From the NCBI GenBank assembly GCA_013115125.1, contig JABANN010000399.1, forward strand, positions 1 to 32,742: DNA of 32,742 nucleotides, in the 5' to 3' direction. The position numbers were made by a program, and so were the translations under genes. The notes under the pieces were generated by a model. The model was not told the origin of the DNA. It ran no database searches and saw only the letters and a program-made list of their open reading frames with translations. The stretch's first letter is position 1; every line of letters starts with the position of its first letter. This DNA comes from Perkinsus olseni (taxonomy: Eukaryota). Shown in pieces: positions 1 through 7,458 of this stretch.

Positions 1-71
1 ATCTTGGCTCAAGGTAAATATCAGGTCCGCTCGCTAGGCTGCAGCCGAAAGGTGAATGCCAGTGACGACCC
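1..71 (+). ncRNA. Spliced-leader RNA gene, copy 1 (5'-truncated by the window edge)
   Basis: 1-13 ATCTTGGCTCAAG is the 3' part of the SL exon, followed by GTAAAT. 1-221 is identical to 1940-2160. The 3' end is estimated from the intron stem-loop. Confidence 0.85.
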
Positions 72-221
72 TTGTTGTATATCATATAGCATGGACTATA
101 TCAGTCACCCCGTGACCCCCTGGACAACGTTTTATGCAAGCGTAGTGATTCAACGATGAGTGCAATCTGACAGGGGCGAGAATCCACGCGAGGGAAACAT
201 TGTCCAGAGGGTGCGGGGTTG
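1..221 (+). repeat. 221-bp direct repeat, copy 1 (SL RNA gene plus 3' flank)
   Basis: Reads identical to 1940-2160 (offset 1939); the sequences diverge after ...GTGCGGGGTTG. Confidence 0.95.
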
Positions 222-330
222 GAGCACTTGTGCGCGTGGCTTGCACGACTGCGCTGCATCACTCACGACACGCTCTGGCTCTCCGTGGAGCCGACTTACG
301 CTCATATCCGAACTTTATTGATTCCGTACT

Positions 331-403
331 TGACAGCAGCAGGAATCGAACCTGGGTCTTTTAAATGATAGGCGTGAAGACTAACCGCTGCGCTACAATG
401 GAA
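331..403 (-). pseudogene. Degenerate tRNA-like element (Asp/Glu-like, ATC at the anticodon position)
   Basis: Minus strand reads TTCCATTG-TAGCGCAGCGGTTAG (A box)...CT ATC AT...CCAGGTTCGATTCC (B box); 73 nt long. Acceptor and anticodon stems do not pair properly. Confidence 0.7.
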
Positions 404-560
404 GCGAAGCAGCTAACACCGTTAGCGACGACGCGGATTCTGATCGGCGATTCATTCTCGAGTCGGAGCTCTTCCATCCCTGAGTGCCGTCGCTCACCAA
501 CTCCTCTGACTCTGCGCAGAGCCTGGTCTGCTCATTTCGGTACATTGCCGACTCCGTACT

Positions 561-633
561 TTCCGACCCCGGGGATTGAACCTGCGCCCTACGAGTGATA
601 GCCGAGGATTCTAACCATTACGCTACGGTGGAA
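561..633 (-). pseudogene. Degenerate tRNA-like element (Glu/Asp-like, ATC at the anticodon position)
   Basis: Minus strand reads TTCCACCG-TAGCGTAATGGTTAG-AATCCTCGG CT ATC AC TCGTAGGGCGCA-GGTTCAATCCC-CGGGGTCGGAA. The acceptor stem pairs only with a bulge. It is offset exactly 230 bp from the first element. Confidence 0.72.
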
Positions 634-694
634 AGGTTGGCGGCCGATGACCCCCATGCGCAGCGACTTCGCAACATGGCATTTTCTCTATCAA

Positions 695-980
695 GCTGCG
701 TGAAATTTCGTCTTCCCCTTTCATGCCAGCTGCGCATTTCGCTTTCATCACTCATAGTCTATCATAGAGCGTCACCTGCACGGCAAATTCGCTTTCGTCT
801 CACTCGTCCACACAACACGATCAGCGTGCGTTGCTCTTTCGCGCAATCACAGTCAATCATAAACGAGGGTCTGCACGGCAATTTCGCTTTTATCGCTCAC
901 ACTCCCTCACAGTCTGCACACCGAGTTCGCGTTCACCTCCCACAGACTCTCACGATCTGCAGCCGGACTTCGTTTTTTAA
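695..980 (+). repeat. Degenerate ~43-bp minisatellite (CTGC-N4-7-TTCGyTTT...CTCAC)
   Basis: Units start near 696, 730, 776, 871, 914 and 957; e.g. CTGCACGGCAAATTCGCTTT (776) vs CTGCACGGCAATTTCGCTTT (871). Confidence 0.6.
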
Positions 981-1644
981 AGTGAAACTCATGTTCTTTC
1001 ACACACGCTCACACCCCATCAGTCGTCCCGACGAAGGGTCTTTCTCAGACGAAATTCGGAAGAAGTGGTATGCAGGAGTACTGCTCGATACCACATGATG
1101 TGGTCCACATCTCCCACAAATTGGCCGTAGGGTTATGCACCGACCATTTAAATGACCGTGTCACCGTCAGTTGGCTTCAATCCTCTCACAATTTGACGAC
1201 TTATGACTGCTTTACCTCGTTGCCCAATACATAGGGTGACTGGTGACACAACATGTAACGAGAAGAGATATCATATATATACCTTTCATTTTGAATCTCT
1301 GTGTCACCAATCACCACGACATCCAATTCCTAGTCATACAAATGACTTTCTCTCTCACGGGCCCTTACATTCAGCATCATCATGGGTGACACAGTGCCTT
1401 CTGCATCACAACCTGCACCATCCTTAGCATACCACTCCCCACTCAACGCACCGGACTTCTGGACAACATGGACTCTCGTAACCCATTGAGTTCGGCGATG
1501 GCTATGGCTGCGAGGCACGTGAAGTCAGAGATGGTGAGGGAATGCGTTCGAGCGGATAGAAAGGCAGTAGTTGGGAATAGTGCCGACATCAACTCGAGAT
1601 TGATTGCTGCGCGGTGGGGGAGGTCCAGGGAGGTGGTCGCCCGG

Positions 1645-1655
1645 AGAATCGAACC
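1645..1655 (-). promoter_or_regulatory. Pol III B-box-like motif
   Basis: Minus strand GGTTCGATTCT. 1646-1660 (GAATCGAACCTGGGT) is identical to 343-357 in the first tRNA-like element. Confidence 0.5.
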
Positions 1656-1831
1656 TGGGTGGGAAGTCGGAGACGCGCATGACAAGATATCGGCCTGGGA
1701 CGAGTCGGAACAAGCTGGAACAGGCAGACGTAGGAACTGATGGTTCTGGAGGCATGAGCGAACCGGACCTCGCGCAAGCCAAAATGAATAGATCACGAGG
1801 AGATAGTCTGTGGCGAGAAGTGAAGTCTGTG

Positions 1832-1842
1832 GGAATCGAACC
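1832..1842 (-). promoter_or_regulatory. Pol III B-box ~90 bp upstream of, and divergent from, the SL RNA gene
   Basis: Minus strand GGTTCGATTCC is a perfect match to the GGTTCGANTCC consensus. Confidence 0.55.
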
Positions 1843-1930
1843 AGCGCAAGATTCCATACACAATATAATATTGTGTGCGCGCGGGTATTTTATGCTACCA
1901 GCACGACCACAACCTAGACCCCTATAGGTT

Positions 1931-2010
1931 ACCGTAGCCATCTTGGCTCAAGGTAAATATCAGGTCCGCTCGCTAGGCTGCAGCCGAAAGGTGAATGCCA
2001 GTGACGACCC
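1931..2010 (+). ncRNA. Spliced-leader (SL) RNA gene, copy 2; exon 1931-1952
   Basis: ACCGTAGCCATCTTGGCTCAAG (Perkinsus 22-nt SL; the dinoflagellate SL is DCCGTAGCCATTTTGGCTCAAG) is immediately followed by a GT donor. The intron folds into a stem-loop (1963-2009) capped by GAAA. The 3' end is approximate. Confidence 0.92.
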
Positions 2011-2160
2011 TTGTTGTATATCATATAGCATGGACTATATCAGTCACCCCGTGACCCCCTGGACAACGTTTTATGCAAGCGTAGTGATTCAACGATGAGT
2101 GCAATCTGACAGGGGCGAGAATCCACGCGAGGGAAACATTGTCCAGAGGGTGCGGGGTTG
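1940..2160 (+). repeat. 221-bp direct repeat, copy 2
   Basis: Identical to 1-221. Confidence 0.95.
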
Positions 2161-4094
2161 CTCGACAATGCCGAAGGTCGAACCTGATACAGGACATATT
2201 ACCACGATACAGGAGAGTAATGTTCATTCTCCAGGAACGTCACCCGAAACCCGATGAACTTCATCGCTTCATCAGATGAAGCGTATGCGCATCGAATGAA
2301 ATGCCATGATTATGAACGACACCCACATAAGGAAAGCGTGGTAGCTCACCTCGACCAGATAACACCTCACTTGGCAGCAGTGAATAGCGGAAACCAAGCG
2401 TCGGTGGCCACATATTTCTTTTGCTCGATAGTCAGGCTATCCATTGTCCATAGGGGAAAAGCTCAGGTTTCTGAGTGACTAGGCGCTAGGTTCGCACGTA
2501 CAGTTGTAAAGAGAGGTTGAGGACAACCGGCCTACCTCAAACACGGTTGAGGGGAGCCCCCAGTAGCGAGTCACTACTCCTGTATAATGTTCACGCGCAC
2601 TCGCTGCCTTACTTAGTCTTGAAGATACTGTAGCCGATATCGTCGCACATACCACGGAGACCATTCTTGGGCAAGCCGCGCCTGCTGGCTTCGTGGACCA
2701 TATCGATAAGCGTGCTGCGCGGCACTACAGTACCTAAATGAGCTGCTTTGTATTCGTCGTTTTGCCGCACCCGACGCATATCTCGCGGACATTCTAAGCA
2801 TGACGCGTAACGAGCGAGTGGGATACAACGAAATTATAGGACTGATGGGGACTTCCACCGCCGCGGGACTTAAGTGCTCGTTGTCAGGGCGGAAAAGGAA
2901 AACTCCATCCGACATGGTAGCGATTCGAATCTGACGAGCAGCAATCCCCGACAGAGAGAGTACAGCAGGACTCACCAGAGAGATCGGGTTTCTTGTCATT
3001 CCGGTTTCCCAGTTCCACTCGAAGTGATAGGGCAGCATAAACGTGGAGAGGGAGCAGGTACACATCTTTTTGACCGAGTTCGGGAAGTTCAGCGCCTACA
3101 AATTTAGTTCACACTTCAACTCGGTCTGATCTCCTATGCCAGACGATGACTGGCTGAAATGGGGTCACTGCGCGTGCTGACTCACCACGCGCGCGCATAC
3201 GAAACAAACCATGTTGTGCAACCATTCTAGGCCGAGCGCCAAACTTTCAGACTGGGTGGACTCCACCCCTTTCGACCCAGTGGGCGCAGTAAGGCCTTTA
3301 GTAAGCAAAGAATATCCATCCCAGGAGAATACCCCACGATAGTACTTCCATGCTGATTCCATGCCCGTGCTCCATGCCATTTAACTCCCAGGCAGAGCTG
3401 AGTTACCATCGCATGAAGAAATGCGGAGATGATTCGGGGTGCATTAGATAAGGACCATTCAGCCCTCCGTCACAACTATACCCAACGCTTCCACATTCAC
3501 CGTTACTCAGAATAAAGTACACCATCTAATTCCATCCTAGAACTCGTCGTCGTGCAGAGCTCACGAGTCGTGTGCAGTCGAAGTTCCGAGACAGTCGGCG
3601 TGCATCTGGTCATATATCTCGTCATCTAACAGGAAGTTCCCAAACTGGAGTACGCAGTTTACACTACGGTGGTTTCCAGAGAAGGACTCCCCGGAGTGTT
3701 GGACTCGTATTCAGGCAACACAGGTAGCCTTATTTTCGTGGAGACTAGTTGGCCCGTGAGGGGGCTTCATCAGCTATCCCAATTAGGGTTCCTACGATCA
3801 TCCGTCGGGTGGCATCTTTACTGATCGCTCAGTCAACCACGCGCTTATCCAGATCGTAGATGATAATTATCAGCGAGAAATACGGAATGATTAACCGACC
3901 GAGGCCCCGCAGGGACTGTCATAAGTGTGACATACTCATCGGACTCCAACACATATGGTACATCATGCAAATACCGAGTACTGGGCGCGCTTCAATGGAC
4001 TCATAAGCATCGGATCGACTTACTCATACGACATACCAATCAAGAAAATAGAAATACGATATCATGCAAATGGGATGCTTCCGATAGGGTCGAT

Positions 4095-5156
4095 TTACCC
4101 GCCGGAGCTCCTCACCCTCTTCGTCTTTGAATCGTCATCACCGTCATATCCCAATTGTAGTGTAGTGACATAGAGCAGTGGATACGCATCATACAGCTTT
4201 AGCATGTAGTCCCAGCCTCGCAGGGATACCCTCCAGTCCCCATTCACCATAATAGATGACACCTCAATATCCTCACCAAAGTAAAAGATAGCATCCTCTG
4301 GCTCTGTGAGGAATTTATCTTCATACACATCGTAGACGCCGAAGAAGTTCATATCGCCTTTCCTGTAGAAGACACCGCAGCAGGCATTGCCTTGAGTCCC
4401 GGGAACGAACTTCACCGCCTCAGCATTCACTTCCTCACTCTCATGGATGGAACCATCACTCTGCCAAACACAGATGCGAACGGACCTCCCATGAATCCAG
4501 CTACGCTTCTGGGGTTGCTCCCTCTTTCGGAGTAGAGCCTTCACCACTTTCCCGTCCTCAACGATGGCATCTTCGAACGTGAACAAATTCTCGCTCTTTT
4601 CAGACCCCTTGGGCAAGGTCATGACATTATGCCACTTACCAGCAGTCTGCATCATGTATATCTTGCCAGACTTTCCCACGGCCAAGAGTTCCTTACCACA
4701 AGCGTCAGCAGTCAGCTCCATTATTGGCTCAGGTAGTTCCATAGGTTTACCCATCTTCCCTCCAAGAGGCTTGTGGCGGACGTGCTCCTGATCCTGTTTG
4801 ATAACAAAGTAGAACGCGCCACCAAATATACAACCAGTTGCGAACTTCCCCTTGAACGACCCCAGGGAACTTATGAATCGCTTGAAGGACACACTTCTGG
4901 GATAGTCTTTCATTTCTTGAACATCGAAGAAGAACAATGAGAAGCCAGAAGTGGTCCGCTTATAAGAGAATATTCCAAGCGAATATCTTTCGTCGTCGCC
5001 ATAGTAAGCCATTGAGAGATGTTTGTCTAGGCGGGCAGCATAGGTCTTGGCCCCTACCAGCTTGCGAGTGGTCGGCAAGCGCATAATCTTCCTTTTCATC
5101 GAGGCATGGTCGTCCACCATTCCACACCGATCTTTGTCATCAGCAGCTGTTGCCAT
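4095..5156 (-). CDS. Hypothetical protein, 353 aa, intronless
   Basis: Long ATG-initiated ORF with protein-like composition rich in short beta-strand-like segments; no family recognised. Confidence 0.75.
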   Translation of the reverse strand: MATAADDKDRCGMVDDHASMKRKIMRLPTTRKLVGAKTYAARLDKHLSMAYYGDDERYSLGIFSYKRTTSGFSLFFFDVQEMKDYPRSVSFKRFISSLGSFKGKFATGCIFGGAFYFVIKQDQEHVRHKPLGGKMGKPMELPEPIMELTADACGKELLAVGKSGKIYMMQTAGKWHNVMTLPKGSEKSENLFTFEDAIVEDGKVVKALLRKREQPQKRSWIHGRSVRICVWQSDGSIHESEEVNAEAVKFVPGTQGNACCGVFYRKGDMNFFGVYDVYEDKFLTEPEDAIFYFGEDIEVSSIMVNGDWRVSLRGWDYMLKLYDAYPLLYVTTLQLGYDGDDDSKTKRVRSSGG

Positions 5157-6417
5157 GATTGAGTAGAACGCCAGAAAGTCCTGGAATTCGACGGGGCTGT
5201 CACTGGTAGTCTACACGAGAAATGGAAGAGAGACCAGCGCGACCCTGCGGCACAGTAATAGTTCGTCTAGTGCACTTCTTCATAGTGGTCATTCAATCCT
5301 CAATTCTGTCGGAAGGGAATTTGATCACCCCTGAGGGAAGTAGACGTCACTCCAATGATTGTGCCCTTCAAGTGCATGGAAGTGAGCTTTGAAGCACGCT
5401 AGTAGCGCTGCGTTACCCGCATCTCAAAACTGTAGCTGCTGTTGTCTCAAAGGTACGTGTGTGGAACCCGGTAAACGCGCCAACACGAATAGTATACTCC
5501 AACAAAGAAGTGGCCCATGCCCCCCATTGACGTTGGAACGCCACATGTGGATTGGCCTAGGCAGAGACAATTTGAGTAAATCCCTTCACAATATGATCGA
5601 CGCAGTCCTGTATAACTCGTTCACTACGCAAAAGGTCACGGCTCAGACCCAGCGATAGTACCATCCGAGTGCCTGAGAAGAATGGAGAAGCAAATACAAT
5701 GTGTGATCACACCTCAAACCTACAGATTGGCCCTCCATAGCTACGACTGAGACTCTGCAGAGCGATGCGGGGGAGAATTGTGACTTCGCTGAGCATCCTT
5801 CTGTCGCCGAAGAGAACTTTGGTCTCGAAACCAACAGAACCGTCCAGGATTGAGTTAGAGACGGTAGTGTCCATCTGAAAAGCATCACAATAATTGCTCG
5901 TGTCAAGAATGATGTGACGAAAAAACTCGGACTGGACCAGCGGATTGCACTTACTATTGCACCAATACTTCCAGTCGTAGAAATAGTCACGAACAGCGTA
6001 CTCCCAGACTTCGTGATTGCCAAGCTAGCGGTCGCGCAATCCAGTGGTACGTTTGCAGTATAGGAAGATGGCGCATCCACTGGCATTTGGTTTCCCAAGG
6101 TAACCGTGCAGGGACTATTCCTATCAGGCGACTGCACGTCATCAAACAAGGTCTGATTTGGGGGCAGAGTGTCCATTGAGGGGTGATCAACATCACTGAG
6201 CAGTCAGCCAGGATTCCTAAGCACATTGTGACGCTAATCCAAGAACGCAGCACCGAGTCATGTACAGAGATAAAACCAGTAATCAAATGACAGTCCGCTA
6301 TTCGAATCCGCCCAAGTAGAAGCAACGAGCACATTATCATCCTGGATGATTCATCCAACATTTTCAGATAAAATAGAAAGAAGCTCACAGGAATACACCA
6401 CGCTCAGGCAGGATAGC

Positions 6418-7458
6418 CTAAATCAGCCACATGCTGCCGAGGAAGATTTCATCCTCCTTCCTATCCTCGTACTCATAGACTATCCGACCACTTCTGAGCA
6501 CATGCACATTGTTTGTGACAAAACCTTCGAAGTCCGCCGAGGTGTGGAGTATGACACCGACAAGAACATCTATCACGTGCACCCGTAGAGAGTGAGATAG
6601 AGATGTTGCAGCGACTAGGCCGACCTTGTCAGGAATAACGCAGCAATCCAACAGCGGCTGGCCGCTCGAGAATGATAGGGTGCTACCGTTCACTTGCATA
6701 TAGAGGATACCACGGTTAGAGTAGAAGTTGTATGCACATTGCCAACTCTCCGACGAAACGAAAACATCCAAAGAGTACGTCGACTCAGGTTGTGCGGGTC
6801 GAGAAATTCCTTCACCACCATGTGGCGTCGCATCTCGTGAACGGAGTCGGCCCATTAGAGCAGAGAAAGGGTCCTTGTGCATTGGCAGAGCGTTGAACCA
6901 AAAGTACCACGCAGATGACGGCGAATAAGATTCCGAGGAGCAGAAACGGCACTCAGCTCGAAAAGTGAGACAAAAGAGGTAGCCGCCAGAGGCTAGAACC
7001 CTACCATCAAAATCGATCGGAATAGATGCGATCTCTTCATTCGAATTGCAAGACCACCTCCGTAGTTTGGGCTCGTCCTCAACTTTGTAATAAACTATTC
7101 CGTTGTGATGCAGTACCGAAGTAACCGGCAATCCAGCAGGTAAGCTCATCAGGTGAGTATCCCCCGATGACATATCATGATTTAGAATCCGATCGTCGGA
7201 ACTCCGGCAAACCGCTACTGCATCATTCCCAGTACCACTGCCTATAATGCTCATGGAGGATGCCCACGGATCGGAATGAGGTCGGGTGAAACTCGTAGGC
7301 GAATGAGACTTCGTATAGCGCCAAATGGTTTCCCTGATCCCTAGGAACCCTTCATCAATTATGGAAGACAGCAATCCGATTCTCATAGCCTCTGGCTCGC
7401 GTCTCAATTGCAGAGGATGAGCTTTGGGCACCTCAGGAGCTGAGGGAATGTTGGGCAT
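6418..7458 (-). CDS. Hypothetical protein, ~346 aa, apparently intronless
   Basis: Long ORF; first ATG at 7458 (the track's 7470 start is TTG). Possible beta-propeller-like segments; no family recognised. Confidence 0.7.
   Translation of the reverse strand: MPNIPSAPEVPKAHPLQLRREPEAMRIGLLSSIIDEGFLGIRETIWRYTKSHSPTSFTRPHSDPWASSMSIIGSGTGNDAVAVCRSSDDRILNHDMSSGDTHLMSLPAGLPVTSVLHHNGIVYYKVEDEPKLRRWSCNSNEEIASIPIDFDGRVLASGGYLFCLTFRAECRFCSSESYSPSSAWYFWFNALPMHKDPFSALMGRLRSRDATPHGGEGISRPAQPESTYSLDVFVSSESWQCAYNFYSNRGILYMQVNGSTLSFSSGQPLLDCCVIPDKVGLVAATSLSHSLRVHVIDVLVGVILHTSADFEGFVTNNVHVLRSGRIVYEYEDRKEDEIFLGSMWLI

Follow-up and report, generated by a model that had tools for sequence, protein, structure and literature searches.

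Many Perkinsus mRNAs receive their 5' end from spliced leader (SL) RNA genes, so that the number, arrangement and promoters of these genes matter for how a parasite that does commercial damage to molluscs expresses its genome. The closest described system is the L-type SL RNA gene of Perkinsus marinus (PmaSLRNA-L; Zhang et al. 2011, PMC3101222). That article reports one contig holding two units and six holding a single unit (the latter of 1–1.8 kb), sequence conservation over the first 82–83 nt, and transcripts of 80–83 nt that end in a poly-T tract. Its table enters the linked genes of the L-type as 'None', and tRNA-derived elements are unmentioned in the part of the article consulted. Other SL RNA genes lie in mixed units: the U2/U4-linked S-type units of P. 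marinus, the SL-5S units of dinoflagellates and of the SPI agent, and the SL-5S-U2 units of Diplonema are all repeated head-to-tail in tens to hundreds of copies, each with a small-RNA passenger. Here we describe an SL RNA locus of Perkinsus olseni at positions 1–2160 of contig JABANN010000399.1 (assembly GCA_013115125.1). The window analysed was the whole contig of 32,742 bp, so that position 1 is a contig end, lying within a repeat.

We consider it likely that P. olseni L-type SL RNA genes form a head-to-tail array of which positions 1–2160 hold the last 1.11 units, and that the tRNA-derived modules in the spacer of this array are dead relics of tRNA genes. The identity of the gene, its repetition, its high copy number, the abrupt edge of the array and the presence of tRNA-derived boxes are established by the data below. 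Like the P. marinus L-type gene, the locus has the identical 22-nt exon, a GT donor, a candidate exonic Sm site and an end of conservation near nt 82; it differs in having GTAA in place of GTAG, one more change, and TTGTTG in place of poly-T. Unlike the mixed SL units, it contains no 5S or small nuclear RNA (snRNA) gene; what accompanies the SL gene here is decayed sequence of tRNA origin on the other strand. A further likeness is to the snRNA genes of trypanosomatids, which likewise have opposite-strand tRNA-derived boxes upstream of a small, spliceosome-related RNA gene, a position held here by the element that we call d. The trypanosomatid companion, however, carries both boxes, and element d, which lacks an A box, is not a companion of that kind; the spacing of trypanosome companions also differs from that of element d. 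In a full-text literature search for SL RNA units with tRNA, only the SL-5S-U2 unit of Diplonema was found, and subscription journals, figures and supplements may hold more. The combination of an SL RNA gene with tRNA-derived modules is a unit type that we have not found described, in what is otherwise an ordinary SL RNA array.

An SL RNA gene in a high-copy tandem array

The SL RNA gene copies, the repeat and the array edge are as follows.

1–73, plus strand: SL RNA gene copy 1, truncated where the contig begins; exon nt 10–22 at 1–13, GT at 14–15, intron to about nt 82; identical to 1940–2012
1–221, plus strand: part of the unit present twice in the window, comprising the SL RNA gene from nt 10 and 148 bp of 3' flank
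222–1930, no strand assigned: spacer of the 1939-bp unit (1709 bp), with no Pfam or Rfam family; its contigs are at about 36–41 times the flank depth
1931–2012, plus strand: SL RNA gene copy 2, complete; exon 1931–1952, GT 1953–1954, predicted 3' end at TT 2011–2012
2160–2161, no strand: array end and start of single-copy DNA, placed by the end of the direct repeat, contig depth and flank alignment

An initial annotation of this DNA had described two SL copies with GT donors, 1939 bp apart and sharing 221 bp of identity. The direct repeat is indeed perfect (1–221 versus 1940–2160, 100% identical at a spacing of 1939), and the second copy is preceded by ACCGTAGCC, which gives the full 22-nt leader ACCGTAGCCATCTTGGCTCAAG at 1931–1952. 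The contig begins at exon nt 10, and the first copy therefore holds only the last 13 exon bases and the GT. With this exon and the GT donor behind it, the second copy has the leader of a Perkinsus L-type SL RNA gene. When the window was searched for the SL 21-mer with up to three mismatches, one match was found, against 0.01 expected. Letter for letter, the exon is PmaSL1, the L-type leader of P. marinus given in PMC3101222. The degenerate P. marinus primer PmaSL-LS-F2 from that source, designed for 3' rapid amplification of cDNA ends, aligns without mismatch at 8–35 and at 1947–1974, where no such match is expected by chance. The L-specific primer from the same source shows two differences from the window (GTAG versus GTAA, and one base further on), which would be compatible with an orthologue in a sister species.

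The intron start is that of the experimentally mapped P. marinus SL RNAs. Folding of the 82-nt RNA gave −28.9 kcal/mol (z −2.56; 2 of 200 shuffled sequences fold as well), and in the predicted fold the donor is paired with the 5' end, as PMC3101222 describes for P. marinus. The motif AUCUUGG at 1940–1946, exon nt 10–16, is by position a candidate Sm site; an Sm role for the exonic site is a proposal made in PMC3101222. From what is established for SL arrays, we infer that these genes are transcribed into leader donors.

To assess copy number, we placed Logan contigs of four sequencing runs (X1 and X2, which are DNA runs from different studies, and X7 and X9) on positions 222–6000. The contig evidence comes from the 30 pieces listed, with 759 further pieces beyond these, and unit contigs are those that match exactly. 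In X1, the five exact unit contigs listed had depths of 3470–3860 and the flank contig a depth of 89.3 (ratio ~41); in X2, the six listed had depths of 5731–6641 against 164.4 for the flank contig (ratio ~36). The flank contig, 30,254 nt long in X1 and 30,205 nt in X2, begins at 2117 in both runs, and this exit to unique DNA is at single-copy depth in each. By contrast, the continuity from 2160 to 222, which joins the SL 3' flank to the start of the spacer, was present at array depth (3587 in X1, 6500 in X2). Depth thus points to a head-to-tail array of more than two copies in both DNA runs. Because the unit, with the two continuities inside it, occurs throughout at about 40 times the flank depth and the exit at single depth, a head-to-tail array is the simplest topology, with about 40 copies of the exact variant per copy of the flank. 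Of the array, the published assembly thus contains only the edge. The sizes of the P. marinus L-type single-unit contigs in PMC3101222 are what a collapsed 1.9-kb array would give.

Since the contig starts within the repeat, the 221-bp duplication might be an artefact of assembly, a possibility for which the initial annotation had proposed a check against reads. The contigs of the two DNA runs show the same junctions, with unit parts and the flank-to-spacer continuity at ~36–41 times the flank depth; the chance of an artefact is accordingly negligible. The duplication is real, and what the assembly has done is to truncate the array.

The annotation's description of a tandem repeat with SL and tRNA-like sequence whose last unit stops at 2160 also held. 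Local alignment of the flank (2161–3400) to the unit found no similarity above shuffled controls, so that the array ends abruptly, 148 bp beyond the 3' end of the SL RNA. A degenerate older unit within 2161–3400 was considered and rejected, as local alignments there did not exceed the shuffled controls. Tandem Repeats Finder reported nothing on 1–3000. Diverged variants of the unit are commoner than the exact one: for example, a contig at depth 8712 in X1 carries 16 differences over 254–360. Summed over the SL gene, depth reached 59,436 in X1 and 123,293 in X2, sums which the Logan tool warns are not copy numbers; related units are probably several-fold more numerous than the exact variant.

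tRNA-derived sequence in the spacer

The initial annotation saw tRNA-like elements and B boxes in the spacer and no recognisable 5S, U1, U2, U4, U5 or U6 signature. Rfam confirmed the latter point: across the whole window no 5S, U-snRNA or tRNA family reached its gathering score, and three scans of the region 1–2700 at E ≤ 10 gave no 5S or U-snRNA and otherwise chance-level matches. The only related match at this threshold was to tRNA-Sec at 332–417 on the minus strand (18.2 bits versus a cut-off of 47). On these scans, the region contains no 5S, U-snRNA or tRNA gene. ARAGORN at default settings, with or without introns, called 0 tRNAs, and Pfam searches of five spacer open reading frames (ORFs; 90–167 aa) and two neighbouring ORFs found nothing. 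Relaxed ARAGORN runs (-ps90, -ps80) produced folds at c[560,634] and c[1820,1922]. On shuffled sequence, the relaxed runs yielded per window 0.53 intron-less calls, 0.38 calls with a short intron and 8.45 calls of any kind; such folds are about as frequent there, and by themselves they were given no weight.

The claim of tRNA-like elements nevertheless stood in part. The spacer contains the following sequences, named a to d for reference; the A-box and B-box motifs used are general consensus forms.

330–402, minus strand: tRNA-derived element a; A box TAGCGCAGCGG at 385–395, B box GGTTCGATTCC at 342–352, start-to-start distance 43 nt
560–634, minus strand: tRNA-derived element b, a paralogue of a; A box at 615–625, B box GGTTCAATCCC at 572–582
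1645–1655, minus strand: B-box-like element c; GGTTCGATTCT, one mismatch, no A box
1820–1922, minus strand: tRNA-like element d, head-to-head with the SL gene; exact B box at 1832–1842, no A-box match

Matches to the B box GGTTCGANTCC with up to one mismatch were in excess (six in the window versus 1.79 expected; 1 of 100 shuffles reaches six). Four of the six lie within 1–2160, all on the minus strand (342–352, 606–616, 1645–1655 and 1832–1842); the match at 606–616 is distinct from the B box of element b, being located in the stretch that separates this box from b's A box. More specifically, the paired pattern TRGCNNANNGG-N25-45-GGTTCRANNCC occurs twice in 32.7 kb, both times on the minus strand (342–395 and 572–625), and none of 300 dinucleotide shuffles contains it. 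Elements a and b are thus the only ones in which an A box and a B box stand as far apart as in a tRNA.

A local duplication of ~231 bp contains elements a and b as paralogues, which agree at 47 of 73 positions. Their stems have decayed: of the pairs in the acceptor, D, anticodon and T stems, element a retains 4/7, 1/4, 3/5 and 4/5, and the two elements together show 4/7, 1/4, 2–3/5 and 3–4/5. ARAGORN reads element b as tRNA-Asp(atc) at the relaxed threshold alone, at which 0.53 such calls are expected per shuffled window. Both elements have ATC at the anticodon position, and a variant contig has GTC in its place (a loose end at 360). In the standard code, GTC is the anticodon for Asp, and these triplets point to an Asp-type ancestor. 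Element c has 15 nt, GAATCGAACCTGGGT, in common with the T-arm region of element a. After elements a, b and c, no run of four Ts (T4) was found on the minus strand; element d alone has such a terminator run, at 1781–1784, 36 nt downstream.

The B box of element d lies 89–99 nt upstream of SL +1, and its acceptor-like pairing ends 9 nt from SL +1. The relaxed ARAGORN call on this element is not significant by itself (0.38 expected per shuffle). Within element d is a perfect 10-bp palindrome, TACACAATAT-A-ATATTGTGTG, at 1857–1877, 54–74 nt upstream of SL +1, which could be a candidate promoter element. Taken together, neither default ARAGORN nor any Rfam tRNA model at its gathering score calls a tRNA gene in the spacer; the A/B-box pairs and the B-box excess are real, and the tRNA-like cassettes of the initial annotation are decayed relics, not tRNA genes.

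Unit variants seen as contig joints include one that has lost one of the a/b modules (334→569), one with a skip from 717 to 892, and one with a 33-nt back-step and a 38-nt insert at 1646–1678. Each a/b module consists of a tRNA-related head and a conserved tail of ~100 nt unrelated to tRNA, as might be expected if a and b were two copies of a tRNA-derived SINE-like retroposon, inserted before the unit was amplified. The start of the tail, AAGTACGGA, occurs twice in the window versus 0.18 expected, and 2 of 100 shuffles reach two. However, the modules abut with a period of ~231 bp, as in a local tandem duplication, a unit with a single module exists, no A-rich tail or flanking target duplication was seen on reading the sequence, and the 32.7-kb window holds no further copy. 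We therefore regard a retroposon origin as very improbable, and favour the local duplication of a tRNA-derived sequence.

A comparison was available from metagenome contigs, which were scanned for the 23-mer formed by SL and GT and yielded three loci. One of these, L003 (2861 bp), resembles the window in having the same 22-nt SL with GT, a tandem unit and tRNA-type sequences in the spacer. Its unit is ~1578 bp, with two units 86–92% identical. It differs from the window in its SL RNA gene, which is ~57 nt long and ends in TTTTT, and in its tRNAs, which are largely intact, lie on the SL strand and have gct/gtt and cgg anticodons; ARAGORN calls four, of which three pass Rfam (60.8, 49.3 and 43.7 bits). 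The tRNAs at 76–151 and 1650–1723 are homologous members of neighbouring units with anticodons gct and gtt, respectively, a difference that reflects either an anticodon shift or decay. By eye, the spacers of L003 and the window have no similarity, and since orientation and tRNA types differ, no homology of the spacers is claimed. L003 does show that, among organisms with this leader, there are some whose SL units carry tRNA passengers.

Origin and activity of the unit

In the reading that we favour, each 1939-bp unit would contain one gene of ~82 nt, made up of the 22-nt exon, the GT donor and an intron of ~60 nt, and its SL RNA would give the 22-nt leader to mRNAs by trans-splicing. Near-identical copies would supply dosage and would be kept alike by concerted evolution, as is inferred from established SL arrays; an array of this kind was presumably left unresolved by the assembler, so that the contig starts within a repeat. 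The spacer would hold relics of opposite-strand tRNA genes: two Asp-type-derived copies that have kept A and B boxes and lost the cloverleaf, and two or three further fragments with a B-box-like motif only. The tRNA genes may once have been repeated together with the SL gene, as the intact tRNAs are in the environmental relative, and may then have decayed, the relics being carried along in every unit with no tRNA made.

Several observations weigh against this reading. There is no uninterrupted T tract at the predicted end of the gene, where nt 81–86 (2011–2016) read TTGTTG and P. marinus transcripts end in poly-T; the next plus-strand T4 comes only at nt 139–142, and other SL gene families in the same reads carry TTTT there (a loose end at 2012). 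Transcription of the ~40 copies might therefore end at another place, or these copies might be less active. Copy number is estimated indirectly, from the word depth of Logan contigs, and the tool cautions against equating the two; X1 or X2 may be the sample behind the window; and among the 30 pieces listed, continuity is not directly visible at every point of the unit. The Asp assignment is weak, since its basis is a single 15-nt loose end together with a relaxed ARAGORN call that lacks significance when taken alone. Finally, between elements a and b, the boxes are identical at 17 of 22 positions and the remainder at 30 of 51, a weak hint that the boxes may be under selection.

The lack of a T4 tract at nt 81–84, where only TTGTTG is found, would also be expected if the units were SL-like pseudogenes and not active SL RNA genes. 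A precedent exists in P. marinus, where more than 100 SL-like genomic sequences gave no clear product according to PMC3101222. Those silent sequences, however, lack a recognisable intron in that account, and the present unit has the intron start of verified genes; moreover, the ~40 copies are identical across two runs. The contigs of the other SL gene families diverge from the unit at 1992, 2012 and 2020 (nt 62–90), one group continuing with TT to give TTTT, so that the sequence common to the families ends at about nt 62–90, where the published RNA ends. A pseudogene array is accordingly a slim prospect.

The hint of selection on the boxes bears on a different view of the spacer, in which the tRNA-derived modules are functional entry sites for RNA polymerase III and TFIIIC, either as promoter companions of the SL gene, comparable to the tRNA-like A/B boxes upstream of trypanosomatid snRNA genes, or as TFIIIC-bound boundaries dividing the array into sections. 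In favour of this view, the stems of a and b have decayed, yet each of the two still has consensus A and B boxes, 43 nt apart from start to start; the divergent element d has its exact B box 89–99 nt upstream of SL +1; and the B box of element a is also covered by the commoner variant family, found at depth 8712 in X1. Set against this are the missing A-box match in element d, the distance of ~1.3–1.6 kb between elements a and b and the next plus-strand SL start, and the small size of the excess identity in the boxes. In addition, the upstream identity of another SL family, seen as loose ends in X7 and X9, starts only at 1880, and this family consequently lacks the B box of element d; and the tRNAs of L003 share the strand of the SL gene, from which they are a long way off. 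On balance, functional boxes appear unlikely.

A broader proposal, that perkinsozoan SL arrays are organised by tRNA-derived polymerase III/TFIIIC sites and that the array edge is read antisense with B-box-like acceptors, is similarly doubtful. Were it true, the modules would be kept in each unit to recruit TFIIIC, and would act as promoter companions of a trypanosomatid-like kind, arisen independently in an alveolate, or as boundaries. Functional boxes would make this a second lineage with tRNA-type promoter elements around spliceosomal small-RNA genes; if the boxes are not functional, as we favour in reading the modules as relics, the locus is an example of passenger genes decaying within a homogenised array.

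Antisense RNA and further leader-bearing contigs

A minus-strand RNA with multiple introns, traced over 1534–3740, reaches into the last SL unit, where it is antisense to the SL RNA gene. Introns with GT..AG ends lie at 3096–3345, 2931–2975, 2734–2826, 2471–2535 and 2184–2349 (alternatively 2184–2612). A single contig of one run shows a further GT..AG intron, 1655–1932, with the complement of the SL 5' end as its donor. The exon that covers the last SL RNA gene, and a separate group of motifs in the middle of the spacer, are located as follows.

1933–2183, minus strand: exon of the antisense RNA over the last SL RNA gene; acceptor at 2184/2183
1158–1392, alternating strands: four GGTGACAC motifs, starting at 1158 (−), 1242 (+), 1301 (−) and 1385 (+)

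The longest ORF of the antisense RNA is 125 aa, and a genomic ORF containing the greater part of it gave no Pfam match; the RNA may be non-coding. Two of its acceptors, at 1654–1656 and 2183–2185 on the minus strand, read CAG|GTTCGA, so that element c and a further B-box-like motif, e, double as 3' splice sites. Among the runs listed as containing this sequence, none is registered as RNA, yet both X7 and X9 contain spliced RNA, as shown by GT..AG joints. Their cover of the array tracks DNA copy number (~0.002–0.005 for X7 relative to X1 in all array bins); it is thus indistinguishable from carried-over DNA and has no bearing on expression of the SL RNA or of the tRNA-like elements.

The GGTGACAC motif occurs five times in the window versus 1.26 expected, a count reached by 1 of 100 shuffles. 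The four in the spacer are spaced by 84, 59 and 84 nt, and alignment of the two halves around them found only the motif in common.

The other two metagenome loci, L001 and L002, have the SL followed by an ORF; as relic or uncertain cases they were not used as array comparators. In L001, a Perkinsus-type SL at 838–860 is followed ~60 nt later by an ORF with what we take, by reading alone, to be an actin-type N-terminus, presumably an SL relic at a retro-copied gene. Three contigs of giant-virus metagenome-assembled genomes (IMG/VR) contain an exact dinoflagellate-type SL 22-mer with GT, at 2001–2023 on the minus strand in L005 and L006 and on the plus strand in L004; these viral matches (L004–L006) showed no tRNAs and no arrays. 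In L005, the SL lies at the border between DNA of 11–20% GC and a block of 40–49% GC with ORFs, one of which has a weak zf-CCCH match and the others no Pfam match. This arrangement resembles a retro-copy, taken up from the host, of a trans-spliced mRNA.

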